The notes beneath the pieces are model-generated. The model had not been told where the DNA came from, did not search any database, and was given only the letters and a program-made list of their open reading frames with translations. From Planctomycetota bacterium (GTDB lineage: Bacteria > Planctomycetota > B15-G4 > SIAN01): a DNA stretch of 64,000 nt. Within the stretch, counting starts at the first letter, position 1; each line of letters begins with the position of its first letter. The position numbers and the translations under genes are program-made. Below, in pieces: positions 36,961 through 63,298 of the stretch. The stretch is from NCBI GenBank assembly GCA_036732755.1, contig DAINBU010000011.1, positions 513 through 64,512 of the forward strand, written 5' to 3'.

Positions 36961-37922
36961 GCGCGCCGCTGCGCGTCGCCTTCGTCGACTTCTGGCCCGG
37001 CTTCGCGCCGGCTGACTTCACGGTGCGCTTCGCCGAGTTCGGCGAGGCCGCGGGAGCCGGCGGCTGCGAGGTCGTCGCCGACGCGCGCGCCGCCGACCTC
37101 GTGGTCGCCTCCTGCTTTCCGGACGGGCAACGGACGACGCGACCCCGCGACCCGAGGACGACGGCCGGCGCCCGCGGCGTCCGCCTGTTCTGGACCGGCG
37201 AGAACGTCCGCCCCGACTTCTCGACCTGCGACTTCGCCCTCTCGTTCTGCCGCGACCTGGTCGATCCGCGCCACTTGCGCGTTCCGAACTACGTCGGCCT
37301 CCACCGTGTGCACGGGCTCGCCGCGGACCTCTACGCGCCCCCCGCCGATCCCGCGGCGCTGCTGCGCGGCAAGACGCGCTTCTGCGCCTACGTCCAGAAG
37401 AATCGCGTCGCGATGCGCGAGGAGTTCGTGCGCGCTCTCTCCCGCCGCCGCCGCGTCGACTGCGCCGGCCCGTCGCTCAACAACATGCCCTTTCCCGCCG
37501 AGCGCGGCGCCAAGTACTCCCTCTACCGCGAGAGCAAGTTCGCGATCGCCTTCGAGAACGAGGCGGCCGCCGGATACACGAGCGAGAAGCTGCCCGACGC
37601 GCTGCTCGGCGGCTGCGTCCCGGTCTACTGGGGCGACCCGACCGTCGCCCGCGACTTCCACCCGGGCTGCTTCCTCGACCGGCGCGACTTCGCGAGCGAC
37701 GCGGAGCTGATCGAACGGATCCTCGCGCTCGACCGCGACGACGCGGCCTACGTCGCGCTGCTGTCGGCGCCGCGCCGCCCCGCGCGGCCGCTGCGCGACG
37801 GCACCGACCCCTCGACGCTGCGTCGCTTCTTCGCAGAGGTCGTCGCGGCGGCGCGCGCCGCGACCGGACGCGGAACGTCGGCCGCGCCGCTCGCGCCGCT
37901 CACTCCGACCGGGAGTGCGTGA
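36957..37922 (+). CDS. Glycosyltransferase family 10 (alpha-1,3-fucosyltransferase-like)
   Basis: GTG start overlaps the upstream stop (GTGA). It carries the GT10 signature KFAIAFENEAAAGYTSEKLPDALLGGCVPVYWGD. Confidence 0.8.
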   Translation: MSAPLRVAFVDFWPGFAPADFTVRFAEFGEAAGAGGCEVVADARAADLVVASCFPDGQRTTRPRDPRTTAGARGVRLFWTGENVRPDFSTCDFALSFCRDLVDPRHLRVPNYVGLHRVHGLAADLYAPPADPAALLRGKTRFCAYVQKNRVAMREEFVRALSRRRRVDCAGPSLNNMPFPAERGAKYSLYRESKFAIAFENEAAAGYTSEKLPDALLGGCVPVYWGDPTVARDFHPGCFLDRRDFASDAELIERILALDRDDAAYVALLSAPRRPARPLRDGTDPSTLRRFFAEVVAAARAATGRGTSAAPLAPLTPTGSA

Positions 37923-40297
37923 TGCGCGACTGCATCGTCCTCGGCTCGGGGCGCAGCGGCACCAGCATGGTCGCCGGCGCGCTCGCCAAGGCCGGGTACT
38001 TCATGGGCGACCGCCTCTACCCCGCGCGCGACGCCAACCCGCTCGGCTTCTTCGAGGCGCCCGAGATCAACGCCATCAACGAGGAGCTGCTCGCGCCGCG
38101 CGTCCCCGCCGCGCAGCGCCTCGCCGCCCCGCAGCGCTGGCTCGCCCGCCTCGACGCGACCGTCGACGCGGCGCCCGAGCCGCTGCGCCGTCGCATGCGG
38201 GCGCTCGTCGCGCGCGCCCCGTTCTGCTTCAAGGACCCGCGCTTCTGTTACACGCTGCCGGCATGGCGCGGCGAGCTCGGCGACGCCTGTTTCGTCGTCG
38301 TCTTCCGCGACCCGGCCGTCACCGCTGCGAGCATCGTGCGCGAGTGCGCCGCCGCCGACTACCTCGCCGGCGTCGAGATGGACGCGGCGCGCGCGCTCGC
38401 GACGTGGTGCGCCATGTACCGCCAGGTGCTGCGCCAGTACCGCGAGGCGGCGCCGCACGAGCGCGCACGCTGGCTCTTCGTCCACTACGACCAGATGGTC
38501 GGCCGCGACGCGGACGGCGCGGCGCGCCTCGCCCGCCACCTCGACGCGCCGGTCGACGCCGCCTTCCCGGACGAACGGCTCCGCCGCTCGAAGCCGGCCG
38601 CCGTGACGAGCGACGAGGCGGCGCAGCTCTACCGGGAGCTGTGCGAACTCTCCGGTTTTTCGCCGGCGCACGGCGCCGTCCGATCCGCCGCGGCGGCGTG
38701 CCCCGCCCCCGCCGCGCCCGAGATCTCGGTCCTGATCTGCACCTGGAAGCGCCGGGAGACGCTCGTCGAGTGCCTGTTGAGCTTCGCGAACCAGACCCTC
38801 GCGCCCGAGCGCTTCGAGCTGGTCGTCGTCGTCGACGAGGCGGGAGACGGCAGCGCCGAGGCGGTCCGCTCGCTCGCGACGCGCCTGCCGCTGCGGCTGA
38901 TCCACCGCACGACCAACGGCGGGCTCGCGTCGGCGCGCAGCGCCGCCGTCGCCGCCGCGCGCGGCGAATGGATCCTCCTCGTCAACGACGACACGATCGC
39001 GTTCCCCGACCTGCTCGAACGCCACTTGGACGCCCACGCGCGGCGCGCGCCGGCGCCCGTCTCCGTGCTGGGCACCTTCGAGCAGCCGCCCGAGCAGCTC
39101 GCGACCGGACTGATGCGCGCGCTCGAGCGCTCCCACCTCGTCTTCGGCTACGCCGGGCTGCGGCCCGGCGTCGACCACGACTGGACGAAGTTCTGGGGCT
39201 GCAACGTGAGCGCGCCGCGCCGCGAGGTGATCGCCGCCGGCTCCTTCGACGCCTGCTTCCACCACTACGGCTGCGAGGACACCGACCTCGGCATCCGCCT
39301 CCACCAGCGCGGGCTGCCGGTCGTCTTCGAGCCGGCCGCGCGCGCGTGGCACCGCCACGTCCTCTCGCTCGACGACCTCTTGCGCCGCCAGGGGACGGTC
39401 GCGCGCGCCTACGTCCGCCTCTTCGCCAAGCACCCCGCCGCGCTCGCGCGCTCGCCGTTCGCGTCGATGCTGCACGCCTCGGTCGCGTCGCTCACCGAGG
39501 AGCGGCGCCGCATGGAGGGGACGGTCGAGCGCCTCCTTCCCGTGGTCCGACAGCTCGCCGAGCTCGACTGCGCCACGCTCGACGCGCTGGGTGGGCCGCT
39601 GCGCAGCGCTGCCGCGGACGCCGTCGAGGGGCTGAAGCAGATCCTGCAGAAGATCGACCCCCACCACTGGGCCGGCGGCTTCCTCGAAGGGCTCGCCGAC
39701 TTCGGCGTCGCGAGCTTCCGCGAGCTGGCGCAGTGGCGCGGCGCGGCGCCGGCCGACGCGACGATGCACGGCGCACCGCCATGGCCCCTCGCGTCGGACG
39801 CGCCGTTCAAAGTGCTTCTGTGGCCCGACTGGAGCGACGAGGGCGAGCTCTCCGCGATCGTCGCGCTCGCCGACGACGCGCGCCTCGCCGCGCCGCCCTG
39901 CCTCGTGCTGCGCTTCGAGCGCACCGACGGCGATCTCGCCGCGGCGATCGCCCGCTTCGAGCGCGTGTGCGCGCGCCGTGCCGCCGGCGCGCCCGAGCTC
40001 GACGTCGTGGTCGTCGACGAACCGCTCCCACCCGAGGCATTCCCGAGGCTCGGCCGTGCCGTCGCGTGCGCGCTGCTCCTGCCGTCGTCGTTCCGCGGCG
40101 AGCGCCACCGTTTCTTCGCCCGCGTCGGGAGCTCGGGCGTGCGCGGCGCCGAGGACCTGCTCGCCTTCGTGCCGGCGGCTCCGGACGGCGCACCGCGTCA
40201 GGTCGAAGCGACGGGATCCGGCGAAGAAGTCGGCGCGACACGCGTTGCGAGCCAGCGGCGCGCCGCCGACTTCTCGAGATCGCGCAGCCCCGCGTAG
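37922..40297 (+). CDS. Sulfotransferase-like N-terminal domain fused to a GT2 glycosyltransferase domain, with a C-terminal extension
   Basis: ATG overlaps the upstream stop. CIVLGSGRSGTSMVAGALAKAGY resembles a PAPS-binding sulfotransferase P-loop. ISVLICTWKRRETLVECLLSFANQT...VVVVDEAGDGS is a GT2 motif. The last ~100 nt overlap the convergent GT2 gene. Confidence 0.7.
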   Translation: MRDCIVLGSGRSGTSMVAGALAKAGYFMGDRLYPARDANPLGFFEAPEINAINEELLAPRVPAAQRLAAPQRWLARLDATVDAAPEPLRRRMRALVARAPFCFKDPRFCYTLPAWRGELGDACFVVVFRDPAVTAASIVRECAAADYLAGVEMDAARALATWCAMYRQVLRQYREAAPHERARWLFVHYDQMVGRDADGAARLARHLDAPVDAAFPDERLRRSKPAAVTSDEAAQLYRELCELSGFSPAHGAVRSAAAACPAPAAPEISVLICTWKRRETLVECLLSFANQTLAPERFELVVVVDEAGDGSAEAVRSLATRLPLRLIHRTTNGGLASARSAAVAAARGEWILLVNDDTIAFPDLLERHLDAHARRAPAPVSVLGTFEQPPEQLATGLMRALERSHLVFGYAGLRPGVDHDWTKFWGCNVSAPRREVIAAGSFDACFHHYGCEDTDLGIRLHQRGLPVVFEPAARAWHRHVLSLDDLLRRQGTVARAYVRLFAKHPAALARSPFASMLHASVASLTEERRRMEGTVERLLPVVRQLAELDCATLDALGGPLRSAAADAVEGLKQILQKIDPHHWAGGFLEGLADFGVASFRELAQWRGAAPADATMHGAPPWPLASDAPFKVLLWPDWSDEGELSAIVALADDARLAAPPCLVLRFERTDGDLAAAIARFERVCARRAAGAPELDVVVVDEPLPPEAFPRLGRAVACALLLPSSFRGERHRFFARVGSSGVRGAEDLLAFVPAAPDGAPRQVEATGSGEEVGATRVASQRRAADFSRSRSPA

Positions 40298-41289
40298 CAG
40301 CCGAGCCAGGTCGCCGTCTGGGAGAGCCAGCCGACGCGCTGCTCGATCTTCACCGCCGCTTCCACCAGCGCGGGAAGGGGGGTGGCGCCGGGCGCGCGGT
40401 CGAGCGCGGCGATCTCCGCCGCGAGCGGCTCGAAGCCGATCGCGCGCGCCGTGAGCTCGCACTCGAACGCCGCGGCCAGCGCCGCCTCGTCGCCCTGCGC
40501 GCGCGCCATCCCGGGCAGGAGCGCCGGGTCGCGGTGCTTGCGCCATAGGCGGACCATGCCGCGGCCGAGGTCGATCTGCCGGCGCACGAACGCCTCGGTG
40601 TCGAGGAGGTGGTGGTGCAGGCACGGCGCGCCCGGCAGGTACCAGACGCCGACGCCGCGCGCGGCGAGCCGCTGCCCGAGCTCGACGTCCTCGCAGATCG
40701 GGTCGCGGAAGCTCTCGTCGAAGCCGCCGGCGTCGAGGACGCTCTGGCGCGGGACGCTCAGGTTGCAGGTCCAGAAGAAGTTCCCGCCGTTCGGCGCGCC
40801 GTGCTGCAGCGCCGCGAACGGGAACAGGAGGCCGAGCTTCGTGGTCGCGCGCGCGAGCGCGCCGTCGGCCTCGGGCGCGTAGGGGAAGTCGCCCAGGAAG
40901 GCGCGCGGTGCGCCGTCGCCGTGCGCGGCGAGGTGCTTCGCGAGCAGGTCGTCGCACGGGCCGGCGTCGTCGTTCAGGATCACCAGGACACGGCCGCGCG
41001 CCTTCGCGATGGCGCGGTTGCGCGCCGCGCCCGGCCCGCCCTGCGGCTGCCACTCGCACTCGAGCGCGTAGGGGACCGCGAGCTGCCGCACGATCGGCAC
41101 GATCGACGGCCGCGAGCCGTCGTCGGTGACGAGCACCTCGAAGCGGTGCGCCGGCAGCGTCTGCCGCGCGAGCGCGCGCAGCAGCCGCACGATCGCGTCG
41201 GGCCGGCCGTGCGTCGGGACGATGACGGAGAGCTCGGGGACGGAAAGTCCCGACGCGTTGCCGCCGCGGCGTCGCAGATCGATCGGCAT
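40198..41289 (-). CDS. Glycosyltransferase family 2
   Basis: ATG at 41289 with GAGGGAG upstream. LSVIVPTHGRPDAIVRLLRALARQTLPAHRFEVLVTDDGS is a GT2 motif. Confidence 0.8.
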   Translation of the reverse strand: MPIDLRRRGGNASGLSVPELSVIVPTHGRPDAIVRLLRALARQTLPAHRFEVLVTDDGSRPSIVPIVRQLAVPYALECEWQPQGGPGAARNRAIAKARGRVLVILNDDAGPCDDLLAKHLAAHGDGAPRAFLGDFPYAPEADGALARATTKLGLLFPFAALQHGAPNGGNFFWTCNLSVPRQSVLDAGGFDESFRDPICEDVELGQRLAARGVGVWYLPGAPCLHHHLLDTEAFVRRQIDLGRGMVRLWRKHRDPALLPGMARAQGDEAALAAAFECELTARAIGFEPLAAEIAALDRAPGATPLPALVEAAVKIEQRVGWLSQTATWLGCYAGLRDLEKSAARRWLATRVAPTSSPDPVAST

Positions 41290-41395
41290 CGCGCGGACTC
41301 CCTCTTCCCGTCCGCTCCTATCGGCCGGAACGGACTTCCGACCGGAGCGCCGGCGTATACTCCCGCCCCCTTCACGGAGGATTCAGGAGAGAGCC

Positions 41396-42049
41396 ATGGC
41401 CATTCGCATCGGTGACGACGCGCCCGACTTCAAGGCGGAGACGACGGAAGGACCCATCTCCTTCCATCAGTGGATCGGCGACCAGTGGGCGATCCTCTTC
41501 TCCCACCCCAAGGACTTCACGCCCGTCTGCACGACCGAGCTCGGCTACATGGCCAAGCTCCAGCCCGAATTCAAGAAGCGCAACACCAAGGTGATCGGCC
41601 TCTCGATCGACCCGGTCGCGGACCACAAGAAGTGGTCGGCCGACATCCAAGAGACGCAGGGCACTGCGGTCAACTACCCGATGATCGGCGACGACGACCT
41701 CGTCGTTGCGAAGCTCTACGACATGATCCACCCCAACGCGACGGGCGGGAAGCGGACGGCGGCCGACAACGCGACGATCCGCTCCGTCTTCGTGGTCGGG
41801 CCCGACAAGAAGGTGAAGGCGATGCTCATCTACCCGATGAGCGCGGGCCGGAACTTCGACGAGGTGCTGCGCCTCCTCGACGCGCTGCAGCTCAACGCGA
41901 AGCACGCGGTCGCCACGCCGGTGAACTGGAAGCCGGGACAGGACGTGATCATCCCGACCTCGGTCTCGGACGACGACGCGAAGAAGAAGTACCCGCAGGG
42001 CTTCAAGACCCACAAGCCCTACCTGCGGACGGTCGCACAGCCGAAGTGA
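41396..42049 (+). CDS. 1-Cys peroxiredoxin (Prx6 subfamily)
   Basis: MAIRIGDDAPDFKAETTEGPISFHQWIG...FSHPKDFTPVCTTE carries the PVCTTE peroxidatic Cys motif. A strong SD (GGAGGATTCAGGAGAG) precedes it. Only the last 217 aa of track ORF 41126..42049 are real. Confidence 0.9.
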   Translation: MAIRIGDDAPDFKAETTEGPISFHQWIGDQWAILFSHPKDFTPVCTTELGYMAKLQPEFKKRNTKVIGLSIDPVADHKKWSADIQETQGTAVNYPMIGDDDLVVAKLYDMIHPNATGGKRTAADNATIRSVFVVGPDKKVKAMLIYPMSAGRNFDEVLRLLDALQLNAKHAVATPVNWKPGQDVIIPTSVSDDDAKKKYPQGFKTHKPYLRTVAQPK

Positions 42050-43962: not shown

Positions 43963-44343
43963 ATGGGACTGCCGCGACAGGAGCCGCCGAAGATCGTCTT
44001 CACCGTCGGCCCCGACGGCCCGCGCGAGGTCGCGAAGCCCGCGGCGACGGAGAGCGCGACGAAAAAGCCTGCGACTCCCGCCGTGAAATCGGGCGCCCGC
44101 TCCGGCGACTTCGTGAAGATCCGCCGCGAGACGCAGGGCCGCCGCGGCAAGACGGTCACGACCGTGAGCGGCATCGCGGCGCGCCCCGCCGTCCTCGAAG
44201 ATCTCGCGAGCGCCCTCAAGCAGAAGTGCGGCGCCGGCGGCGCCGTGAAGGACGGCGTGATCGAGATCCAAGGCGACCACCGCGAGAAGGTGAAGGCGGA
44301 GCTCGAGGCGCGGGGGTACGTGGTGAAGTTCGCGGGCGGGTAA
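43963..44343 (+). CDS. yciH: SUI1/YciH-family translation initiation factor
   Basis: KIRRETQGRRGKTVTTVSGI...LKQKCGAGGAVKDGVIEIQGDHREKVKAELEARGYVVKFAGG matches the SUI1 domain along its full length. Confidence 0.85.
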   Translation: MGLPRQEPPKIVFTVGPDGPREVAKPAATESATKKPATPAVKSGARSGDFVKIRRETQGRRGKTVTTVSGIAARPAVLEDLASALKQKCGAGGAVKDGVIEIQGDHREKVKAELEARGYVVKFAGG

Positions 44344-44357
44344 GCGAGACGCCCGAC

Positions 44358-47300
44358 CTACTTGTTCCCCGCGTCCTGACTCTCCGACTCGGATGCGCTC
44401 GCCTTCTGGATCCGGATCGTGTCCGCCGCCGGCCCCTGCGACGTCCATTCAAACGGGACCGCGTCCTCCCCGCTCTGATTGGTGTCGTTGTCCCTCATCC
44501 GATACGAACCGGGCTGCAGGCGCAGGTGAATCCGGCCCGAAGCGTCCGACTGCACGTAGTACGGGAAGTCGTCGGCTGCACCGTCCCCGAATCCGATGTC
44601 GATGAAGTGCGACGGCATCGGCAGGTCGGTGGCGCGATCCTTGATCAGCAGGTCCCCCGCGACGAGCGCGATCACGAATTCCGCGCGACTCTCCACACCG
44701 GATGCGATTTCGAAGTCCTGGGGCGCACGCCAGTACCACGACTGATCGGCGCCGCGAACGATCACGCTCACCGAACCCGCCGGGATCGGCGAGAGGATCG
44801 CGCGGCCATCCGCACGGACCTGGCCTGCGGCCAGGCGATCGACCCCCAAGAGCTGGTCCTTCGTCATCTTCGTCGACTTTCCCGGTCGCACCTCGACGAT
44901 GGCGCCCGCGGCGGGAATGCCGTCGACCGTGACGGTGACACTCAAGCAGCCCGGAAACACGGCACGGGCGTCGAAGTCGGCGCGCGTCTCCGCTCCGTCG
45001 ACGATGGTGACCGGCTCGGACGTCGTGGTCGCCGGCTCTCCAACCTTCGTCACGATGCGAGCAGCCAGCGCGAACTCCACTGAAACACCGGTCGACATGG
45101 AGCCGCCCTCCCCAAGAGGGATCCGGACTGGAGGAAGCGCGAGGTGGACTTCGGTCGGACCCGGAGGCAACGGTCCGAGGCGGTACGTGCCATCGGGAGC
45201 GAGCGAGAGGGGCGCGGGCATGTCGAACGACCCGCGCATCCGTCGGAAATCCATGCGATGCTGGCGAACGATGCGGTCGTACTTCTGCTCGACGGTCTCG
45301 CCGGGTCTCGCGGCGATCACGTCGAGCCCCGCGCACGTCGCACCGTCGGGCACGATCAGACGCCCGACCAGGTACCCGCGCGGCGGCAGGACGAGCTCGA
45401 GGTCGGCGACTCTCGACGTGTCCTCGCGCACGTCGACGTCGTCGATGCGAGCCTCGAGCGGCGGGGCGTCTTCGTTGCAGATCGTGTAGTGGCCCGGAGG
45501 GACGCAGGCGAATTCGAATTGCCCGTCGGCGTCCGATTCCGCGTCGAATATTCCCGCCGGAGCTTCACCGTTGACGACGTGGAGCCCGGAGTTCGGGGAG
45601 TCGCTCTCCCGATTCGGTTCGAGGTGAACTCGGGTGTTCGCCACCGGAGTCGCACCGTCGGATCGAAGCACGACGCCGGAGATCGTGGCTCCTTTCGTGA
45701 GCCGTGCCGTGACTTCGGTGACCTGATTCGCCGGCAGGGGCGTTAGGGGCAGCGAACACGCTGCGCAGCCGGGCACTTCGACGATCAGCGTCTGCTCCAC
45801 CGGGATCATGCCGTCGAAGAGCCCGCCGTCCGGGGGCGGCTCCCCCGCCTTGACCAGTTCGAAGGTGTTCGGCCGAGTGTTTCCTGCGAACTGGACGCGC
45901 AACGAATAACGGGGAATCTCTGCTCCCGTCGCCGCGTAGACGACGTGCAGTCGAATCTGCGCGTTTCCTTTCAGCTTCGCGCTGATCGACGAGCCGACGG
46001 CGACGCCATCCTGCCGCCACGGCAGGAACTTGGGGTCACGGATCTCGACGGTGTATTGGCCGTCCGGAACGTCGTCGAACGAGTGCGACTGTGAGCTGAA
46101 CTGGATCTTCGTCGCGTGCCGCGGCTCGATCCCATTCCCGGTGAGGAGGATCTCGGCCGCGTCGCTCTCGAAGATGTAGAAGGGTCGCGCGAAGAGCACG
46201 ACCGTGATCCGATGCGCCACGTCGGAACCGGCGTAGATGATGTCCGCGTCGGTCGTCTCTCCCGATCGCACGTCGATCGCTGGGCCTTGGATCCAGTTCG
46301 TGAGCCGCGAATTGGCCTTGAGCTGGACCTTGCCTGGAGGAACGTTCTCGAGGAGGAATCTCGCGGTCGTCGCGTCGACCGCCGTGTAGACGCGCGTCGT
46401 ATCGGCGCCGTCGCCTTCGGCGCACTTCGGTCCGTCGGCATGGACCGTCCATCCCGCTCGAAGGATCGGTTCGCCCTTCATGTCGACGATTCGGCCGCGG
46501 ATCGTGCCCGCGCGACAGAGCGTGATGTCACCGAGGTTCTTCGTTGATCCCGGGTCGATCTGTGTCCATCGCCAAGCCGGCGCGGCGTAGCCGTCGAGCT
46601 TCGCGTCGAAGACGAATTGGAAGGCGCGCGGTGCCGTGAATTCGATCGCGAATGAGCCGTCGGGTTGGCTCACCACTTCGATCGGCTTCCAGTCCGTCGG
46701 CAGGCCGTACTTCAGTGCCCGCTCCTGATTGCTCTTCCACCCGTACAGCCGCAACGCAACGTTCGCGGCGCCGCTGCCGTCCGGGAGCAACAGCCTCCCG
46801 GTCATGTGCGCGGGCGCGTCGTCCGGGGGTGAATTCGGGACCGGTGCGCTCTCCTTCGTCCGAGCCGGCGCGCCCGATTCCTGGGGCGCCGGATCGCCGC
46901 TCGCCGCGATCGGACCTGCGGAAGCCGCCGGCAGTGCGACCGGACTCGCCAAGACCGCGGGAGCCGCGACGCTCGCTGCGCCCGTACGAGAGACGGCCGG
47001 GCGCCGATTCATCATCACGACGAGCGAGACTCCGATCACGATCGTCGCGGCCGACGCGATCAGCTTGGCACTTGCCGGGACCACGACGTGGGCGATCGGC
47101 CCGCACAACGGCATCAGCGCTGCCTCGAGCGTCGGCTCATTCCACTTCAACGAGTCGAGCCGCTCCCGCAACTGCGCCAGCCCTCGCTTCAACCGCGTCT
47201 TCACCGTCTCCACGCTCACGTCGAGCGTGCGAGCGATCTCGGTCGGCGGGAGCTCGTCGAAGTAGCGCGCGAGCAGCGTCGACTTGTAGGGCTCCTCGAG

Positions 47301-47669
47301 CGCGAGCACCGCAGCTGCGACGCGCTGCTGGATCTCGGCGCGCGCGACGATCTCGCCGGCGGCGGGTGCGGTGGCGGGCGAGGCGCGAGCGGTCCCTTGG
47401 ATCTGCGCCTGCGCCTGCTCATGGCGTGCGCGTGTCGCTTCACCCCGAAAGAGGTGGCGCGCGACGTTGCGCGTCACGGCGCCGAGCCAGCTCCGCTTGT
47501 CGCCTCCATGGCGCGGCGGACGGGAGAGCGCGGCGAGCCACGTTTCCTGCTCGAGGTCGTCGACGCGATCGGCTCCGCGGACGAGTGCGCGCGCGACGCG
47601 ACGCACCCACGCGGCATGGCGCAGTAGCTCGTCCGCCGATTGCGGGAAGGACATGGGGGGCAGACTCAC
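44358..47669 (-). CDS. ECF-family sigma-70 factor fused to a transmembrane helix and a ~880-aa extracytoplasmic domain with carboxypeptidase-regulatory-like (prealbumin-fold) repeats
   Basis: GTG at 47669 with AAGGAGGAG 5 nt upstream. Sigma region 2 (RHAAWVRRVARALVRGADRVDDLEQETWLAAL) and region 4 (LPPTEIARTLDVSVETVKTRLKRGLAQLRERL) are present. There is no stop or plausible restart before a transmembrane helix (LIASAATIVIGVSLVVMM). Repeated beta-sandwich-like units follow (..GRIVDMKGEPI.., ..GVVLRSDGATPVANTRVHLEP.., ..GRLIVPDGATCAGLDVIAARP..). Confidence 0.7.
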   Translation of the reverse strand: MSLPPMSFPQSADELLRHAAWVRRVARALVRGADRVDDLEQETWLAALSRPPRHGGDKRSWLGAVTRNVARHLFRGEATRARHEQAQAQIQGTARASPATAPAAGEIVARAEIQQRVAAAVLALEEPYKSTLLARYFDELPPTEIARTLDVSVETVKTRLKRGLAQLRERLDSLKWNEPTLEAALMPLCGPIAHVVVPASAKLIASAATIVIGVSLVVMMNRRPAVSRTGAASVAAPAVLASPVALPAASAGPIAASGDPAPQESGAPARTKESAPVPNSPPDDAPAHMTGRLLLPDGSGAANVALRLYGWKSNQERALKYGLPTDWKPIEVVSQPDGSFAIEFTAPRAFQFVFDAKLDGYAAPAWRWTQIDPGSTKNLGDITLCRAGTIRGRIVDMKGEPILRAGWTVHADGPKCAEGDGADTTRVYTAVDATTARFLLENVPPGKVQLKANSRLTNWIQGPAIDVRSGETTDADIIYAGSDVAHRITVVLFARPFYIFESDAAEILLTGNGIEPRHATKIQFSSQSHSFDDVPDGQYTVEIRDPKFLPWRQDGVAVGSSISAKLKGNAQIRLHVVYAATGAEIPRYSLRVQFAGNTRPNTFELVKAGEPPPDGGLFDGMIPVEQTLIVEVPGCAACSLPLTPLPANQVTEVTARLTKGATISGVVLRSDGATPVANTRVHLEPNRESDSPNSGLHVVNGEAPAGIFDAESDADGQFEFACVPPGHYTICNEDAPPLEARIDDVDVREDTSRVADLELVLPPRGYLVGRLIVPDGATCAGLDVIAARPGETVEQKYDRIVRQHRMDFRRMRGSFDMPAPLSLAPDGTYRLGPLPPGPTEVHLALPPVRIPLGEGGSMSTGVSVEFALAARIVTKVGEPATTTSEPVTIVDGAETRADFDARAVFPGCLSVTVTVDGIPAAGAIVEVRPGKSTKMTKDQLLGVDRLAAGQVRADGRAILSPIPAGSVSVIVRGADQSWYWRAPQDFEIASGVESRAEFVIALVAGDLLIKDRATDLPMPSHFIDIGFGDGAADDFPYYVQSDASGRIHLRLQPGSYRMRDNDTNQSGEDAVPFEWTSQGPAADTIRIQKASASESESQDAGNK

Positions 47670-47843
47670 GATCTCCTCCTTAACGCTGCGGCCGCGCGCC
47701 CGTCCAGGTTTCCGAACTTTGCACGGATGCCGCGCCGAGCGCGGGAGGGTTCACCGCTTCGCGAATCGACGACCCGGCCCCGGCCGGACCGACGGCGCTA
47801 ACCTGCCGCGCCGGTTCACCCCAATTCGGAACGGAGCGCGCAC

Positions 47844-49424
47844 TTGGCTCGACGACGGAGCGGGACCCTTCGGCGAGCGACGGCCCTCGCGGACGTCGCC
47901 GCGCTCGCGTCGGTTGCGCTCGCGCTCGCGAGCCCCATCGCCCTCGGGCAAGGCGTCGGCCTCGACGACGCCTTCGCCCCTTCCGCCTGGAGCGACCTCT
48001 TCGACCACCGCAGCCTGAAGGGCTGGGTGAAACGCGGTCCGGCCAAGTTCGAGGTCGTCGACGGCGTCCTGGTCGGCCACGCCGTCGCCGGCGAGACGAA
48101 CTCGTTCCTGTGCACGGAGGCGAGCTACGACGACTTCGTCCTCGAAGTCGAATTCCGCTGCGACGCGCCGCTCAATTCGGGCGTGCAGGTGCACAGCGAG
48201 TTCGTCGCCGGCCGCGTGCAGGGCCATCAGGTCGAGATCGACGTCGACGGCGCGCGTGGACGGCTCTGGTCGGGCGGGATCTACGACGAGGGCCGCAAGG
48301 GCTGGCTCGATCCGGCCGACGGCGAGCAGGGCGCGCGCGGCGTCGCGTTCAGCGAGCAGGGGCGGAAGATCGCGAACGCGCTCGCGAACGAACGGAATCG
48401 GGACGGCTGGAGCTGGCTGCACGTCGTCGCGCACGGCACCGAGCTCACCGCATGGCTCGACGGCGAGCTGCGCGGCCACGTCCGCGACGCGGCTCCGGAA
48501 CACGGCTTCCTCGCCCTGCAGGTGCACGCGATCGACGCAAAGGCGCTGAATGCCGCGCCCCGAGGCGAGCTCGCGGTCCGCTTCCGGAACGTCCGGATCC
48601 TTCCGCTCCCGAGCGGCGCGACGGGGATCGGCGACAGCGACGCGACCCAAGATGCGAGGGTCGCGATCGACGGTGCCGGCACGAACCGCCTCACCGACGA
48701 GGAGGCGCGCGCGGGCTGGCGTCTCCTGTGGGACGGCGCAGGCGACTCCGGCTGGCGCAGCGCGACGGGCGAGACCTTTCCGAAACGCGGTTGGACGATG
48801 CGCGACGGAGTGCTGACCGTCGGCGCACCGCCCGCTGCGCCCGCGAATCCATCCTCGACCAAGGCGGGAGCCAACTCCACCTCCGAGTCCGCCGCCGGCG
48901 GCGACCTCCTCACCCGCGAGCGCTTCTCCGACTTCGAGCTGCGCGTCGACTTCCGGCTCACGGCCGGCGCCAACAGCGGCATCAAGTACTTCGTGCAGCC
49001 CGACCTGCGCCCGATCACGGCGAGCGGCGCGCCGGCGGCGACCGGTTCCGCCATCGGCTGCGAGTTCCAGCTCCTCGACGACGCGCTCCACCCCGACGCG
49101 AAACTCGGCCGCGACGGCAACCGGACGCTCGCCGCGCTCTACGACCTGATCCCGCCCGCCGCCGAAAAGCCGGCGCGCCCGATCGGAGCCTGGAACACGG
49201 CGCGCATCGTCGCGCGCGGCACGCACGTCGAGCACTGGCTGAACGGCACCCGCGTCCTCGAATACGAGCGCGGCACCGACGCCTTCCGCGCGCTCGTGCA
49301 GCAGAGCAAGTACAAGAACCTCCCCCAATTCGGCGAGTGGCGCGACGGCCACGTCCTGCTGCAGGAGCACGGCAGCGAAGTCTCCTTCCGCAACGTCTTG
49401 ATCCGCCGCCTGCCGCCCGACTGA
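47844..49424 (+). CDS. Secreted protein with two DUF1080 (3-keto-disaccharide hydrolase-like, concanavalin-type) domains
   Basis: TTG start with GGAG 9 nt upstream. Signal peptide MARRRSGTLRRATALADVAALASVALALASPIALGQG. Each half has the DUF1080 pattern (W..LFDHRSLKGW........G..VGHA...NSFLCT...Y.DF.LE.EF. and NSGIKYF......HWLNG..V..Y.. at the C-terminal end). Confidence 0.75.
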   Translation: MARRRSGTLRRATALADVAALASVALALASPIALGQGVGLDDAFAPSAWSDLFDHRSLKGWVKRGPAKFEVVDGVLVGHAVAGETNSFLCTEASYDDFVLEVEFRCDAPLNSGVQVHSEFVAGRVQGHQVEIDVDGARGRLWSGGIYDEGRKGWLDPADGEQGARGVAFSEQGRKIANALANERNRDGWSWLHVVAHGTELTAWLDGELRGHVRDAAPEHGFLALQVHAIDAKALNAAPRGELAVRFRNVRILPLPSGATGIGDSDATQDARVAIDGAGTNRLTDEEARAGWRLLWDGAGDSGWRSATGETFPKRGWTMRDGVLTVGAPPAAPANPSSTKAGANSTSESAAGGDLLTRERFSDFELRVDFRLTAGANSGIKYFVQPDLRPITASGAPAATGSAIGCEFQLLDDALHPDAKLGRDGNRTLAALYDLIPPAAEKPARPIGAWNTARIVARGTHVEHWLNGTRVLEYERGTDAFRALVQQSKYKNLPQFGEWRDGHVLLQEHGSEVSFRNVLIRRLPPD

Positions 49425-53000: not shown

Positions 53001-54188
53001 TCAGCCCGACGTGCGCTCCACGGGGGCGCCGTCCGAGGCCGCAGTTCCGTTCACCGGCGCCCCCCCGGCGGCGGGCGCGACGATCAGCACGGTGAAGGTG
53101 CGCCCGATCGGGTCGCGGCCCCCCTGCGTCAGCTCGATGCGCACGCGGTCGGCCCCCTCGTCGTGCGGCAGCATGGCCGTGAAGGCGATGCGCGAACGCG
53201 GCGCGCGTTCGCTGCTCAGCACCGGGTCGGGCTGCGCCTCGGAGAGCGTCCCGTCGACGACGCGCTCGCCGCAGCGCACCACGCAGCCGCGCAGGTCGGC
53301 GGCGGAATCGCTGCGCACCTCGACGTGGCCGCTGACCACCACCTCGCCGCGGCGCGCGACCGCCTTCACGTCGCGCAGCAGGTAGAAGTCGGCGAGGTCC
53401 TCGGTCGCGAGGATCGTCCCCGACGACTCGTCGACGCGGCGCGCGAGCCCGGCCGCGAGCCCGCTCCCGACCGCCGCCGCGAAGTGCTCCTCGACGTGGC
53501 GGTTGTTGCGTTCGAGCAGGCCGGGCGGGACGACCAGCGAGAAGACGTAGCCGAGCGGCTCCGCGCGATCGAGGAAGTCGAGGCGCACCTCGTCGAGGCG
53601 CACCTCGAAGCGCGCCACCTCCGCGTCGCCGTCGGCGAACGTGGCGCGGCCGCCGGCGATCGGCAGCACCTGGTGCAGCACCGCCTGGAGGCGCGCCTCG
53701 CCGCGGTAGGTCGTGTCGTCGACGAACCAGCAGAAGGGCCCGCCGATCAGGAAGAGGGGCAGGTTGAGCCAGAACGTCTCGTTGTGCTCGTAGGAGGCGC
53801 GGCGCGGCACCTTGGCGTCGCACTCGAGGACGAGGTCGGCGTCGGCGTCGGCGCACGCCCGCCGCCACCACGCGTCCTGCTCGGAGCGCGGCAGGCGCTG
53901 GAACTCCTCGGGCGACGTGCCGGCCGGCCAAGGCAGCACGATCGCGTCGGCGAAGCGGCCGCGCAGCGCGTCGCGCACCGCGCCGGTGAGCTGCGTCGAA
54001 TCGAAGCGCGGCACGATCGAATTGCCCTCGGGCGCGCTTCCCTCCGACGCGAGGTCGGGGAGCGCCGCGGCGTCGAACGGGATCACCGCGACCTTGAAGG
54101 GCAGCGTGCCGCCCGAGACGCTGGTCGTCGCGGTGCAGCCGACCGGCGCGAGCAGTCCGGCGCAGAGGAGCAGCGCGCGCAGCTTCAC
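53001..54188 (-). CDS. Hypothetical lipoprotein, last gene of the FHA / kinase operon
   Basis: GTG at 54188 overlaps the kinase stop (GTGA). GAGGGGG lies about 9 nt upstream. VKLRALLLCAGLLAPVGCTATTS gives a signal with Cys. The mature protein has ordinary composition. Only the C-terminal 396 aa of track ORF 53001..55904 are real. Confidence 0.6.
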   Translation of the reverse strand: MKLRALLLCAGLLAPVGCTATTSVSGGTLPFKVAVIPFDAAALPDLASEGSAPEGNSIVPRFDSTQLTGAVRDALRGRFADAIVLPWPAGTSPEEFQRLPRSEQDAWWRRACADADADLVLECDAKVPRRASYEHNETFWLNLPLFLIGGPFCWFVDDTTYRGEARLQAVLHQVLPIAGGRATFADGDAEVARFEVRLDEVRLDFLDRAEPLGYVFSLVVPPGLLERNNRHVEEHFAAAVGSGLAAGLARRVDESSGTILATEDLADFYLLRDVKAVARRGEVVVSGHVEVRSDSAADLRGCVVRCGERVVDGTLSEAQPDPVLSSERAPRSRIAFTAMLPHDEGADRVRIELTQGGRDPIGRTFTVLIVAPAAGGAPVNGTAASDGAPVERTSG

Positions 54189-57100
54189 TTGCCGCCCCCC
54201 TCGCCGCTGCACTCGCTGAAGCGCGCCCGCTGCAGGTCGCCGCTCTCGAGCTGCCCGAGCACGTCGTCGAACGACGCCGCGCAGCGGAAGCCGCGGTCGG
54301 GCGCGCGCGCGTCGCGCCGCTGCCGGTCGGCGCAGGCGAAGTCGCCGTGCGCGCGCCGCGACGACGCCCCCACCACCCAGAACTCCGCCGCCTCGGCGGG
54401 CGACGCGCGCTCGCGCGGCCGGAGGAACCACGCGCGGTGGTCGTTCACCCAGCGGATCGGGTTGGCGCCGTCGAAGCCGTCGGCGACGGTGCCGCTCCAC
54501 TCGCTCACGCCGCCGGTCAGGTCGCGCAGCCTGGTGTCGGGGGTGACGTCGGCGCCGCCCGCCTCGACGCCGCGTCCCGACGCCGTCGCCCGATAGTTCG
54601 CGCCGCCGCGCAGCGCGTACTCCCACTCGACGAACGACGGCAGCCGCTTGCCGGCCCAGCTCGCGAAGGCCGCCGCCTCGTTCCAGGTGACGTCGGTGAC
54701 CGGCCGGCCTGGCGGGGCGTCGCGCAGCGTCGCCTGCAGCGCGGCGCGGCGCTGCGCGGCGGGCGCCGCTCCGGCCGGCCAGTGCGTCGCGTCGGCCCAG
54801 CCGCGCGGGTCTTCGAGGAAAGCGCGGAAGTCGGCGACCGTCGTCTCGCGCTCGTCGAGGTAGTAGTCGCCGATCTCGCCGGCGGGGAACTCGGCGGACC
54901 ACGAGCGGGAGATCTTCAGGCGATTGTAGGAGCCGAGCCCGACCGACGCGAAGAGGCGCTTCTCGTCCTCGTCGTTGCGGCCGCCGAAGCGGTAGGGCAC
55001 GTCGCGGTTGCCGCGGACGAGACGCAGCGTCGCGAGGGTCGCGTTGCCCTGCGTCACGCGGACCGCCGCCGGCGCCATGCGCGTGATCGTGTCGGCCTCG
55101 CGCTTGGTCGAGACGGTGGTCGACCGGCCGCGCCGGTCGCGCGCCGTGAACGTGATCGTCACCTCGCGCTGCGTCCACGACCGCGGGATGCGCGTGCGGC
55201 CCGACCACTCGCGCGCCGCCGCCTCCTGGTCGCGCCCCTCCGCCGCGAGCGCGACCTCGACCGGCGCGAGGCCGGCGACCTCGAGGCGCGCCGCCACGTC
55301 GGCGACGCCGTTTTGATCCTCGACGTCGGCGCGCAGTTCGTAGTTGCCCGCCGCGTCGGGGTCCCAGGCGTGGTCGGCGAGCGGCCGCTTGAGCTCGACG
55401 ACCGGGCCGCGCTGCGCGATCTCGAAGGGGAGCTCGACCGGCGCGGCGACGTTCCCCGCTTCGTCGGAGCCGACCAGGCGCAGGACGTAGCGCCCGTCGG
55501 GCCAGGCGGGCGGATCGGCGAGCGCGGCGGCGACGGGGAGCGGCAGCGCGAGCTCGCACGGCTCGCCCCCGACGGCGGCGGCGGGCAGCTCCCCTTCGGC
55601 GAGCGGCGCCGTCGCGCCCGCCCCGTTCGCGCGAACGGAGCGCACCACCTCGAAGCGCACGTGCGCCGGCGCGGCCATCCCGGTGCGCTCGGAGACGCCG
55701 GTGTCGACGGTCAGGAGCGCCGCCGCCGGCCAGGCGCCCGCGCTGCGCGACCGCTCCTCCGCCGCGAGCGCCCTGCATTCGAGCCGCGGCGGCGTCTCGT
55801 CGACGACGCAGCGCGCGCGCAGCTCGAGGTCGGGCGGCCGGCGGCGGTCGTCGGCGTCGATCTGGCGCCAGCAGCGCAGCAGGAGCTCGTGCGGGCCCGC
55901 GCACGGGAGCTCGACCTTGAACGTCCCCAGCACGTCGGAGGGGCCGCCGAGCGCGACCTCCTCGGCGTCCCCCGCGCCCGCATCGGCGCGCGGCGGCGTG
56001 ACGGCGCGGCCGTCGACGGCGAGCGTCACGCGCAGCGGCACGCTCCCCATGCGCGTCACGTGGACCTCGATCCGGCGCGACGCCGTGAACCAGGGCGCCC
56101 GCTCGTCATCGGGCGTGTCCGTCGCGAGCGGCACCGCGGGTGAAGCGCCGTCGGGGCCGGACAGCGCGACCGCCAGCTGCGGGCGCGCGTCGCTGCAGTC
56201 GAATTCGAGCCGCGCATGGGCGCGGCCGCGCCGCTCCGCGTCGTCGCGCAGCACGTAGGCGGCGTCGGAGGCGCGGACCTCGAGGGCCCCCTTGAACAGG
56301 CGGTCGCCCGGATCGAAGCCGAAGTCGGCGAGCGCGACGTCGACGCTCTTCGTGCACGCGAGCGCGCGCCGACCGAGCGAACGCCCGCCTGCCTCGAGCA
56401 ACTCGACCTCGACGTCGGCGACCGTCGAGAGCGCGAAGGAGAGGCGCGAGCGGCGGCGGTCGGCCACGAACCAGCGCTCGCCGTTGCGCAGCGCGGCCGA
56501 GAGCTCCGGCTCCCGCGCGAAGGCGAGCGGGTCGGTCACGATCTCGAGCGGGCAGGTCGCCAGCTCCTCGTTCCCGGCTCTGTCGACCAGGTGGATCTGC
56601 AGCGGCGGGCTCGCGCTCGTGAGCTCGAGCCCGCGCAGCGCAAGGCGCCAGACGCCGCGCGACTCGTCGCGGCGCGACTCGTCCTGCTGCGCCTGGAGCG
56701 GGCTGCCGCCGGCGCGCACCTCGATCTTCTCGACGTCCTCGGGCCGGCCGTCGACCACCACCTCGATCAGCTGCGCCTTCGGGTCGAGCCGGCGGCCGTC
56801 GCGGCGCGGCACGTCGACGCTCCCGAGGCGGATCGCGTCGGGGCCGAGCCATTCGAGCGCGAACGGCTGCGAGTAGCGCGCCGGCGCGTCGCGCGGCGCG
56901 AGCGAGAGGCGGCGCACCTCGACGTAGACGGCCTCGCGCACGCGGCCGCCCTGGCGCTCCGACGCGACGCTGCCGGCCACGCGCAGCGAGCCCGCGCCGA
57001 GCGACGTCGCCATCCAGTCGGCGAGCGTGCCCGCCTCGGGCTTGGGGTCGGCGACGAGGCGGACCACGTCGCCCTCGGCGAGGTCGACGCCGCTCGCGCG

Positions 57101-58339
57101 CAGCACGACCTCGGGGCGCTGCGGGCCGAGCGTCAGCACGTCGTCGGTCAGCAGCCGCTCGTGGTCGGACTCGCGCGCGAAGAGGTCGAAGTAGGGCGCC
57201 GCGTCGCGCGGGAGCATGAGCCAGCCGCTCGTCGCCGCCAGCGCGACCACGATCGACGCGAAGGCGAGCGCGCGCCGGCCGGTGCGCGGGTGGACGATCG
57301 CGTCGAGCGCGGCGTACGCCTCCTCGGCGTTCCGGAAGCGCCGCTCGCGGTCGCGCGCGAGGCAGCGGTCGATGAAGCGCGCGAGGCGGCGCGGCAGCCC
57401 CTTCGCCAGCGCCTCGACGGACGGCGGATCGCGCGCGAGCTTCTCGGTCAGGAGCGCGCGCGCGTCGCCGCGGTTCTCGAAGGGGAGGCGTCCGGTGACC
57501 ATCCGGAAGCCGATCGCGCCGACCGCGTAGAGGTCGGCGCGCTCGTCGAGCGCGACGACTTCCTCGCCGGTGAGGAGGTGGGCCCCCTGCTCGGGGGCGC
57601 AGTACTCGGGCGTGCAGGCGGCGCAGCGGACCGTGTCGGATCCCGCGGAGTCGCCGAGCTTCGCGCCGGAGGCGGAGCGGCGGCGGATGGTCTGTCCGGG
57701 GTCGTCGGGGAGCTCGTCGAAGTACTCCGCCGGCTCGACGATGTACGCGACGTCGGCGCCGAGGAACTGGCTCACGCCGAAGTCGATCACCTTGACCCAG
57801 TCGCTCCCGGCGCGGCCGCCCGGCTGCGGCTCGAGGAAGACGTTCGAGGGCTTGAGGTCGAGGTGGAGCAGGCACTCGCCGTCGGGCAGGCGGTGCGCGG
57901 CGCGCAGCGCGTCGACGATCTGCAGCAGGATGCGCGCGGCGCGGGCGGGCGCGAGCTTCTTCTCGCTCTCGAGCAGGTCGAGCAGGTCGCGCCCCTCGAG
58001 CAGCTCCATCACGAAGTAGGGCGTGCCGTCGGCCGTCTGCGCCAGCGCCTTCCAGTCGACGACGTTGGGGTGCTTGAGGCGCGTGAGGCGGCGCACCTCC
58101 TCGAGGAAGCCGGCGAGGCTCGCTTCGTCGGCGGCGACGTCGCGGTGGAGGATCTTGATCGCGACGCCGCAACCGAGCGAGAGGTCGCGCGCCGAGTAGA
58201 CCGCCCCGAAGCCGCCGACGCCGACCAGGCGAAGGATCAGGAACTTGCCGTCGAAGGTGCAGCCGACCAGCTCGCCTTCGCGGCCGCGCTCCGGCGCGCC
58301 GGCGTACGGCGCCTCGACGTCGCGATCGGGGGCGTCCAT
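54185..58339 (-). CDS. Transmembrane Ser/Thr protein kinase (non-RD, HLD catalytic loop) with a large extracytoplasmic region ending in an FGE-sulfatase (formylglycine-generating enzyme-like) domain
   Basis: ATG at 58339 overlaps the upstream gene stop (TGATG). Kinase subdomains: [40 protein letters not shown]. A transmembrane helix follows ([19 protein letters not shown]). A ~700-aa extracytoplasmic region ends in the FGE motif block ([33 protein letters not shown] ... HGDFAC..RGFRCA). The N-terminal 1400 aa of track ORF 54185..62539 are out-of-frame shadow of the giant gene. Confidence 0.85.
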   Translation of the reverse strand: [1384 protein letters not shown]

Positions 58340-62898: not shown

Positions 62899-62908
62899 GA
62901 TGGGGATC

Positions 62909-63298
62909 TCAGCGCGTCGTGGGGAGCGCCGGCGGCGGCGTCGAGAGGGTCTGCTCCTCGCGCTGCTGCGCGCGCGCAAGGTCGTCGGCGCCCGTCGCGC
63001 CGAGGATGCCGACGTGGAGCGAGTAGTCGCCGATCTGGACGATGTCGCCGTTGCGCAGCTCGGCGTTCCGCACGGGCCGGCCGTTCAGCGACGTCCCGTT
63101 CGAGCTGCCGAGGTCCTCGAGGAAGTGGCGCCCCGACTTGGCGACGATCGCCGCGTGCATGCGCGACACGTCGGCGCTGTCGATGCGCAGGTCGCAGTCG
63201 GCGGAGCGCCCGATCAGGACGCGGTCCTTGACCGACTCGAGCCGGTGCGTCACGCGACCGTTCAGGATCGTCGTGAGGCTGATCTGCGTGGACGCCAT
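62909..63298 (-). CDS. FHA-domain protein (129 aa), first gene of the operon
   Basis: ATG at 63298 with GGGGGAG 7 nt upstream. RVLIGRSADCDLRIDSADVSRMHAAIVAKSGRHFLEDLGSSNGTSLNGRPV..GDIVQIG is the canonical FHA pattern (G-R...S.xH, SxNGT). Stop lies 10 nt before the GTG of the giant lipoprotein gene. Confidence 0.8.
   Translation of the reverse strand: MASTQISLTTILNGRVTHRLESVKDRVLIGRSADCDLRIDSADVSRMHAAIVAKSGRHFLEDLGSSNGTSLNGRPVRNAELRNGDIVQIGDYSLHVGILGATGADDLARAQQREEQTLSTPPPALPTTR

Follow-up and report, generated by a model that had tools for sequence, protein, structure and literature searches.

On the minus strand of a 64,000-nucleotide stretch of contig DAINBU010000011.1 from a Planctomycetota bacterium (NCBI GenBank assembly GCA_036732755.1, positions 513 to 64,512; this whole stretch is called the window here), one gene joins the core of an extracytoplasmic function (ECF) sigma factor, a single transmembrane (TM) helix and a large ectodomain of beta-sandwich repeats. 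These three parts, at 44358..47669, are one continuous and real gene, which we refer to as the target. ECF sigma factors are a major signalling route of bacteria, and Planctomycetota encode dozens of them per genome, many with huge C-terminal extensions. From the comparison with its homologs the target is a typical member of a planctomycetal family with the same layout. It encodes a one-component, membrane-tethered ECF sigma factor. Sequestration at the membrane by its own tether and subsequent release by proteolysis is the most likely mechanism, although in our judgement an even call.

One continuous gene

The third codon position has the highest G+C content of the three positions in every 100-codon window across the open reading frame (ORF), as in one frame. 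An ortholog in the L073 locus, with 82% protein identity, aligns with one indel. The ratio of nonsynonymous to synonymous substitution rates (dN/dS) against this ortholog is 0.33 for the whole gene, 0.29 for the sigma part, 0.21-0.43 for the four quarters of the ectodomain and 0.64 for the stalk between helix and ectodomain, which is the least constrained part of the gene. On these substitution rates purifying selection acts on both the sigma half and the ectodomain half. The GTG start and the Shine-Dalgarno-like AAGGAGGAG are identical in the L073 locus, and the GGAGG core lies at the distance of 5 nt from the start that an earlier note, made from the sequence alone, had given for the ribosome-binding site. 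The JGI annotation begins at the ATG of codon 6 and has a 1098-amino acid (aa) product; this difference of 5 residues is immaterial to the domain reading.

The cluster formed by the target protein at 90% identity holds 14 sequences, from NCBI, Logan, ENA and JGI, and more distant orthologs with 52% and 49% identity keep the junction in a single frame and also the convergent SUI1 neighbour. Since the ORF is reproduced in independent assemblies and both halves are under purifying selection in the comparison with the 82% ortholog, the fusion is not a frameshift artefact. The earlier note had asked for a stop or frameshift between the sigma domain and the helix as the sign of an ordinary sigma/anti-sigma gene pair, and neither is found in the continuous frame signal, in the L073 alignment or in the 14-sequence cluster. 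The idea that a missed stop or frameshift merged two genes, an ordinary one for a sigma factor and another one downstream of it, is thus effectively refuted already, and we give it next to no credence. It could appeal to one of the 14 cluster members, in which the gene is split, and to a related protein, P0257, in which the sigma part ends before the TM helix. However, the coding-frame signal is continuous, the orthologs at 82%, 52% and 49% identity keep an intact junction, 13 further sequences at ≥90% identity come from four sources, about 100 clusters share the junction, and the split copy breaks inside the sigma domain and not between sigma and TM helix.

The split copy sits on one JGI contig, where the gene is divided into 112 + 972 aa, and is most simply explained as an assembly error. 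P0257 (L082, 5001-5639) is a 212-aa sigma factor of the family that keeps the juxtamembrane motif, ends before the TM helix and lies amid very short ORFs. It is probably degraded, and both cases look like damaged or mis-assembled copies and not like true two-gene versions. As a separate observation, the third-position G+C of the target gene is 0.83 (about 0.68 overall) compared to 0.91-0.98 in the flanking genes, which could mean a weaker codon bias or a different history.

Domain layout and membrane topology

The ECF core spans aa 11-172 and is followed by a juxtamembrane segment of 30 residues, the helix, the stalk and the ectodomain (Table 1). By its profile matches the protein is an ECF (group 4) sigma-70 factor: sigma2 and sigma4 both score above the curated Pfam cut-offs, and NCBIfam TIGR02937 (sigma70-ECF) covers aa 17-171 at 62 bits (cut-off 42.9). 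The unambiguous ECF domain of the earlier note is thereby borne out. The scan of the target against Pfam and NCBIfam gave no match to sigma region 3 or region 1, and the specific NCBIfam subfamilies stay far under their cut-offs (planctomycetal TIGR02984, 37 against 184; TIGR02989, 39 against 125). The closest solved structures in the PDB by sequence are the ECF sigma factors SigH, SigW and SigE. Region 2 carries the family-conserved DDxxQETWL and WLxxVxRN. The helix-turn-helix of sigma region 4 is the reader of the -35 element; in the target the Sigma70_r4_2 (PF08281) match has its boundaries at aa 115-167, and T155, R159, R162 and R168 are invariant in the family.

An AlphaFold2 model, based on 72 homologs and with a mean predicted local distance difference test score (pLDDT) of 81.4, gives a confident helical sigma domain, with the helices of region 2 at pLDDT 85-96. 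It continues with helices at 181-194 (pLDDT about 83 as far as residue 190), a low-confidence part at 194-279 that comprises the TM helix and the disordered stalk, and an all-beta region at 287-1090, mostly at pLDDT 85-97. The Kyte-Doolittle maximum falls at aa 203-221, in agreement with the single hydrophobic helix that the earlier note had placed about 30 residues past sigma4. The same note had counted about 880 residues of repeats after the helix; the beta-sandwich repeats stand, whereas about 70 of these residues (222-289) belong to the disordered Pro/Ala-rich stalk. Across the family the sequence downstream of the TM helix contains 23% A and 13% P.

In the ectodomain Pfam CarboxypepD_reg (PF13620) matches two stretches at 71 bits against a cut-off of 32.3, and a repeat hidden Markov model iterated on the family detects 7 repeats between aa 290 and 1065. 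Foldseek against the PDB returned generic tandem Ig/CnaB/MG arrays with low TM-scores, among them the B. anthracis TIE protein (6fwv), Gram-positive pilins and alpha2-macroglobulin; this search of the ectodomain gave no enzyme match and no functional clue. Although alpha2-macroglobulin and pilins are among these fold matches, reading through the sequence revealed neither a thioester nor an isopeptide motif. Taken together, hydropathy, the Pfam and NCBIfam matches and the AlphaFold2 model agree with the earlier note that one gene encodes an ECF sigma core, a single TM helix and a large beta-sandwich ectodomain.

The note had further claimed that no anti-sigma domain is paired with the sigma part, and indeed no anti-sigma, FecR or zinc-finger Pfam family matches the target at E<=1. 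The residues at aa 170-205 (LDSLKWNEPTLEAALMPLCGPIAHVVVPASAK) contain one Cys and no HxxxCxxC. This residue, C189, is the single Cys near the TM helix, and aa 1-188 have none.

We infer a topology with the sigma part in the cytoplasm and the module outside. A sigma factor acts only in the cytoplasm. The module is probably extracytoplasmic by homology, because its free-standing relatives begin with a signal peptide or signal anchor and are thus exported. In the TM flanks of the family there are on average 0.34 acidic residues ahead of the helix and 1.71 behind it, with similar numbers of basic residues on the two sides; this acidic excess after the helix gives a net flank charge that favours the N-in orientation.

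Table 1. Features of the target gene and its upstream region (coordinates in the window)
Feature	Coordinates	Strand	Details
Whole gene	44358..47669	(-)	1103 codons + stop; GTG start at 47669; alternative ATG is codon 6 (47654)
Shine-Dalgarno-like AAGGAGGAG	47681..47673	(-)	GGAGG core 5 nt from GTG; 9-mer 3 nt from GTG
Sigma region 2, aa 17-77	47439..47621	(-)	Pfam PF04542 Sigma70_r2, 29.2 bits (cut-off 24)
Sigma region 4, aa 115-172	47154..47327	(-)	PF08281, 40.7 bits (cut-off 25.7); PF04545, 32.1 (24.1)
Juxtamembrane segment, aa 176-194	47088..47144	(-)	KWNEPTLEAALMPLCGPIA, target version of GGRRAW-AALLPLA
Single TM helix, aa 203-221	47007..47063	(-)	LIASAATIVIGVSLVVMMN; best 19-residue Kyte-Doolittle window, score 2.15
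Pro/Ala-rich disordered stalk, aa 222-289	46803..47006	(-)	AlphaFold2 pLDDT <50; least constrained part
Ectodomain module, aa 290-1090	44400..46802	(-)	About 8 tandem beta-sandwich domains of CarboxypepD_reg / transthyretin / CnaB type
Candidate ECF-type promoter P2	47722..47754	(-)	-35 TGAACC(CTC) 47753..47745; -10-like GGCATC 47731..47726
Weaker candidate promoter P1	47791..47818	(-)	TGAACC-N19-GTC; GTC not kept in L073 (GCC)

A planctomycetal family of fused sigma factors

With the whole protein as query, 109 clusters were recovered, nearly all of which combine sigma regions 2 and 4 with CarboxypepD_reg at about 670-1500 aa; the exceptions are four sigma-less ectodomain proteins (P0005-P0008). 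The clusters that carry names are proteins from metagenome-assembled genomes (MAGs) of Planctomycetota and are annotated as 'sigma-70 family RNA polymerase sigma factor'. A single hydrophobic helix is found at aa 175-300, mostly at aa 185-235, in about 95 of the 104 clusters with a sigma part, and it lies about 50 residues past the TVKTRL motif of region 4.2. In a genome collection of species representatives most Planctomycetota MAG loci show the same sigma-TM-extension layout, with 50% as the best sigma identity among the matches listed. Several copies occur per MAG: OFTM341 has at least 4 loci, and two copies lie within 15 kb on L077. The homolog search proposed in the earlier note thus found the sigma-TM-repeat architecture in more than 100 clusters, and for the same reason the pairing cannot be called unusual or exceptionally long, as the note had it, given this layout at 700-1500 aa and several copies per MAG. 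On this comparison the sigma-TM-CarboxypepD_reg layout is a family trait in Planctomycetota, of which the target is a typical representative, ordinary for the phylum.

In an alignment of 104 N-terminal sigma sequences the core is tightly conserved and has no conserved Cys column. Sigma4 is followed by a juxtamembrane motif, G-G-R-R-A-W-x-A-A-L-L-P-L-A, with W kept in 81/104, L185 in 93/104 and P187 in 64/104; the target version reads KWNEPTLEAALMPLCG. A Lys stands just before the TM helix in 63/104, a Gly in mid-helix in 61/104 and a Trp at its end in 75/104, and the helix is Ala-rich. When the sigma part alone (aa 1-201) was used as query, mostly fragments on short contigs were recovered, which gave no placement relative to the WD40-type ECF sigma factors.

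Some observations on individual loci deserve mention. One protein of 1116 aa with the sigma-TM-long-extension layout of the family is binned to a myxobacterial MAG (Kofleriaceae; L035, 5974-9324), which reflects either horizontal transfer or mis-binning. L077 carries two sigma-CarboxypepD_reg fusions (6001-8883 and 8864-11704 (-)) and a free-standing signal-anchored array (12456 to the locus end) within 9 kb; fused and unfused forms therefore coexist in one genome. A 198-aa gene adjoining this free-standing array was considered as a sigma factor and is a membrane protein instead. Likewise P0005-P0008 were considered as split sigma/anti-sigma relatives and rejected, as they begin with a signal peptide or anchor and not with an anti-sigma domain.

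A candidate autoregulatory promoter

The earlier note had suggested looking for an ECF-type promoter upstream of 47669, and a candidate, P2, was found there, whose -35 element is shared exactly with the sigma clade and whose -10 element is a variant. The window carries GTGAACCCTCCCGCGCTCGGCGCGGCATCC at 47754..47725, with a 16-nt spacer after TGAACC as in the clade. In the target TGAACCCTC-N13-GGCATC lies 62-84 nt upstream of the start, and GAACCCTC occurs only once within the 64-kb window, at P2. Close sigma relatives in L074, L077, L078 and L079 have TGAACCCTC-N13-GG(G)TCTC(TG) 59-134 nt upstream of their starts; their sigma domains are 53-68% identical, and their ectodomains and neighbours are different. 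L080 and L081 share TGAACC and have GTCTAT or GGCCTC as the -10 element. The 9-mer TGAACCCTC is present in 5/5 independent upstream regions, where its chance per 150-nt region is about 2-3e-4, and 7 of its 12 occurrences in 81 loci are directly upstream of such sigma genes. The motif at the target suggests autoregulation from P2 as a candidate promoter. For the clade as a whole there is good comparative evidence, of the kind that shared upstream motifs provide and not a mapped promoter, that the sigma factor is functional and autoregulated.

The support for the second candidate, P1, is low because its GTC is not conserved in L073. Other AAC...CGT readings upstream (GGAAAC-N22-CGTTAA, GAAC-N23-CGT) were rejected, as their spacers, counted by eye, are too long. 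Around the gene neither a sigma70-type promoter nor a credible terminator was seen. Dinucleotide-shuffle k-mer statistics on 39 upstream regions of the family picked out CGGCAT (14 compared to 3.1 expected), AACCCT and TGAACC; a promoter signal emerged only from this analysis and from the closest sigma relatives. CGGCAT(C), which the window has at 47732..47726, often stands 20-60 nt ahead of the start codon, with a spacing to any -35 element that is not uniform; it may be the -10 element for part of the family.

These data also bear on the question whether the N-terminal domain might be a sigma mimic as in PhyR, which binds another regulator instead of directing transcription. A trivial PhyR_sigma2 Pfam match (E 0.24, 11.9 bits) would speak for it, but this match is far below the cut-off of 27 and there is no receiver domain. 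Moreover, the core- and DNA-contact residues of sigma2 and sigma4 are conserved throughout the family, and the promoter-like motif co-varies with the sigma clade. We therefore regard a mimic as very unlikely.

The ectodomain as a free-standing and a fused module

A search with aa 291-1103 against 1.84 billion representative proteins gave 1285 matches at E<1e-3 and 303 at E<1e-30, in which all 800 residues align in one stretch. Judged from these alignments the ectodomain is a conserved module of several domains, about 800 aa in length, rather than a loosely strung series of repeats. We classified 154 module-bearing proteins, namely the 150 best matches of this search and the earlier homologs P0001-P0009. 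Among these, 94/154 are free-standing with an N-terminal signal anchor (MRKLLVLL...) and a module from about aa 90, 32/154 are fused to a sigma domain with the module from about aa 270-330, and 28/154 are truncated or unclear with a varying module start. P0005, the closest sigma-less relative (about 46% identity), has an apparent cleavable signal peptide at its N-terminus, and P0006-P0008 have an N-terminal signal anchor.

In a neighbour-joining tree built from the modules, fused forms are dispersed and the target clade is sister to free-standing forms; by parsimony, a crude estimate, at least 14 changes between the fused and the unfused state occurred on this tree. The same module is found on a different ECF clade of the LFxRFRxxGDxxAL type (P0178, P0179, P0199, P0216, P0233, P0252) and, in P0210, on yet another ECF clade, and in all seven proteins the linker from sigma to TM helix is longer than in the target clade. 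By sequence comparison the module is thus fused to at least two ECF clades unrelated to that of the target. Since the module mostly occurs without sigma and also in fusions with other clades, the coupling of sigma and module seems to have been gained or lost many times. The fusion looks as if a sigma module had been added at the cytoplasmic terminus of a signal-anchored exoprotein that already existed.

Such an origin raises the question whether the fusion is an evolutionary by-product. A duplicated sigma2-sigma4 might have landed before the gene of a signal-anchored surface protein, so that the ectodomain would be structural or adhesive and the sigma part idle or constitutively parked. This is the very origin that Pinto and da Fonseca put forward for the C-terminal extensions in Planctomycetota (PMC7671368), and the excess of anchored free-standing over fused forms, the sister position of the target clade to free-standing forms and a genomic context that is not conserved across the family all agree with it. 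An idle sigma part is however difficult to reconcile with the purifying selection on it (dN/dS 0.29) and with the conserved clade-specific promoter motif. In addition, this sigma family almost always occurs with TM helix and CarboxypepD_reg arrays and has a conserved juxtamembrane motif of its own, and the joining of the module to at least two unrelated ECF clades with at least 14 state changes points to selection for coupling. A mere by-product therefore appears quite unlikely to us.

Proposed release from the membrane or possible activity at the membrane

The release of the sigma factor that we weigh evenly would proceed as follows. A sigma domain without an anti-sigma domain would be parked at the membrane by its 30-residue tether, in an inactive or poorly active state. 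A change at the envelope or cell surface might destabilise or expose the ectodomain or the stalk and lead to trimming outside the membrane, after which a site-2 protease would cut within the Ala/Gly-rich helix. The freed sigma fragment of about 200 aa would then direct RNA polymerase to promoters of the type TGAACC-N16-GG(C/T)NTC, one of which precedes its own gene, and this would result in positive feedback. Our grounds for proposing release are the disordered stalk, the Ala/Gly-rich helix and, by analogy, the cases of IutY and SCO4117 (PMC8999054).

Several points weigh against this proposal. Neither a protease site nor a protease of the site-1 or site-2 type could be assigned to the gene. 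In one planctomycete, ECF sigma factors have been found in detergent-soluble membrane fractions, which fits tethering and is silent on release (PMC8567305). The TM flanks of the target carry +1 before and +3 after the helix, which taken alone is contrary to the positive-inside rule. At P2 the -10-like GGCATC departs from the clade consensus GGTCTC (GCA instead of GTC), and an enumeration of two-part promoters (-35 5-mers and -10 4-mers in the 39 upstream regions) gave only CpG-rich noise. Finally, most copies of the ectodomain module carry no sigma domain. It follows that the module serves its own function and is not necessarily the sensory ectodomain that the earlier note saw in it.

It is also possible, though doubtful in our view, that the sigma factor works while it is tethered. 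Like ToxR or CadC it would recruit polymerase and promoter DNA to the membrane, and the ectodomain would tune this activity through a ligand, oligomerisation or localisation with no cleavage at all. With no anti-sigma domain nothing obvious blocks the binding of core polymerase, and the 30-residue tether and the helices, which are conserved in length and motif, could be a spacer for holoenzyme at the membrane. ECF sigma factors of Tuwongella immobilis were recovered in Triton- or SDS-soluble fractions (PMC8567305), and whether such sigma factors function with the extension attached has been asked before (PMC7671368). However, IutY and SCO4117, the only fused examples that were studied experimentally, indicate activation by truncation or proteolysis (PMC8999054). 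A sigma factor must also accompany polymerase through open-complex formation on the chromosome, which is harder from a membrane anchor. A weak argument in the same direction is the resemblance of the Ala/Gly-rich TM helix and the disordered stalk to a substrate of intramembrane proteolysis.

A broader and rather unlikely extension of these ideas is that the module of about 800 aa is a sentinel exoprotein that was repeatedly captured by ECF sigma factors, which would provide Planctomycetota with widespread envelope sensing without anti-sigma factors. Damage or turnover of a beta-sandwich array at the surface or in the periplasm may be read out directly by the release of the attached sigma factor, or the sigma factor may transcribe while it is anchored to the invaginated planctomycetal membrane. 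Either version, if true, would amount to a form of sigma control without experimental precedent.

Genomic surroundings

The target gene is monocistronic. Its downstream neighbour is a convergent gene of the SUI1 family (43963..44343 (+)), and the divergent upstream neighbour encodes 526 aa with two 3-keto-disaccharide hydrolase domains (47844..49424 (+)). The 64-kb window contains no anti-sigma gene, no other ECF sigma factor, no M50 site-2 protease and no S41 protease, and among the neighbouring genes there is no receptor gene near the target and no anti-sigma domain. Genes for M50 and S41 proteases are usually located elsewhere in the genome, so that their absence from the window is uninformative. 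The content of the window is Planctomycetota-like, with FG-GAP arrays, a fusion of Ser/Thr kinase and FGE-sulfatase domains, a protein with an N-terminal methylation motif and 72% G+C.

Further genes in the window are of interest in their own right. In a protein of about 1371 aa (54185..58300 (-)) a Ser/Thr kinase at the N-terminus is combined with an FGE-sulfatase-like domain at the C-terminus, and a 1546-aa FG-GAP repeat protein (58339..62979 (-)) comes after it; the ORF as listed, 54185..62539, extends past the real start of the kinase-FGE gene. A 792-aa sulfotransferase-GT2 fusion (37919..40297 (+)) and a convergent 363-aa GT2 (40198..41289 (-)) overlap by about 100 nt as called, and in a peroxiredoxin (41126..42049) about 94 residues precede the AhpC domain. 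The start and stop calls of these three ORFs probably need trimming. The ORF at 37748..41059 (-), which is also 1103 aa long, was rejected as a paralog of the target: it is an Arg-rich shadow ORF opposite the sulfotransferase-GT2 gene, and the equal length is a coincidence at 72% G+C.

Comparison with known systems

ECF sigma factors with a membrane-spanning C-terminal extension are already known, and the target is of this kind, with sigma and extension in one polypeptide and no anti-sigma gene in the window. The literature already discusses ECF sigma factors of Planctomycetota whose C-terminal extension is up to 10 times as large as the sigma part (PMC7671368). Among the papers searched, none was found that pairs ECF sigma factors with carboxypeptidase-regulatory-like domains. 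Public data nonetheless contain the family in abundance, and its members with a named source bear annotations as sigma factors.

The closest named group is ECF57 (formerly ECF01-Gob). Like the target family it comes from Planctomycetota, joins an ECF core to a very long C-terminal extension, has no separate anti-sigma factor and occurs in several paralogs per genome, with 5.3 ECF57 copies per planctomycetal genome (PMC7826278). The extensions of ECF57 are described as rich in WD40-like repeats, with two conserved cysteines that link sigma2 and sigma4 (PMC8999054). In contrast, the extension of the target consists of a TM helix and CarboxypepD_reg beta-sandwiches and matches neither WD40 nor any other beta-propeller family at E<=1, and its sigma core has no Cys and the family none that is conserved, where the two groups are compared by their described features.

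IutY of Pseudomonas putida (ECF243) shares with the target the N-terminal ECF sigma domain, a membrane span and an extracytoplasmic C-terminal part. It is a sigma/anti-sigma hybrid, for which release by Prc and RseP has been proposed (PMC8999054). However, IutY has a FecR-type anti-sigma domain between sigma and TM helix and works with a TonB-dependent receptor, whereas the linker from sigma to TM helix in the target has only about 30 residues, with no FecR or anti-sigma match and no receptor gene nearby. The situation is similar for SCO4117 of Streptomyces coelicolor (ECF52) and for the related actinobacterial groups ECF48 and ECF53, which share the ECF core, the TM helix, an extracytoplasmic proline-rich segment and a folded ectodomain of binding type; for SCO4117 proteolytic activation has been proposed (PMC8999054). 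Unlike the target, ECF52 is actinobacterial and combines a ZAS-like zinc-finger anti-sigma segment with a carbohydrate-binding domain; ECF48 and ECF53 likewise contain an anti-sigma domain. The target differs from ECF52, ECF53 and ECF48 in that it has no HxxxCxxC and no zf-HC2 match, carries an eight-domain beta-sandwich array and has its named relatives in Planctomycetota.

In the classical sigmaE/RseA system a separate anti-sigma factor in the membrane is degraded by site-1 and site-2 proteases. The target would share with it, if our proposal holds, the principle of keeping a sigma factor at the membrane until proteolysis frees it. The ECF-type shape of the candidate promoter (an AAC-containing -35 element, a spacer of 16-17 nt and a GTC-type -10 element in the clade) and the likely autoregulation are common to both, but the target has neither an anti-sigma gene in the window nor an anti-sigma domain, and its tether is covalent. 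The free-standing, signal-anchored CarboxypepD_reg array proteins of Planctomycetota (e.g. P0005-P0008 and P0110-P0123) share the module of about 800 aa from end to end, with 31-47% identity, and ahead of it a short stalk and one membrane helix or signal peptide at the N-terminus. They differ in having no sigma domain and a cytoplasmic tail of 2-4 residues, and therefore they cannot signal to transcription in the same way.

For Planctomycetota it has been asked whether sigma factors of this kind can function while they carry the extension, and whether the extensions have any regulatory role (PMC7671368). The family described here is a concrete test case, with clean boundaries between sigma, juxtamembrane motif, TM helix, stalk and module, a candidate promoter and the free-standing ectodomains as natural controls. 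The juxtamembrane motif, this promoter and a module that is mostly free-standing yet repeatedly fused make the long-standing question of the ECF extensions testable, and either release or membrane-bound activity, if demonstrated, would settle the control of a large class of planctomycetal sigma factors.

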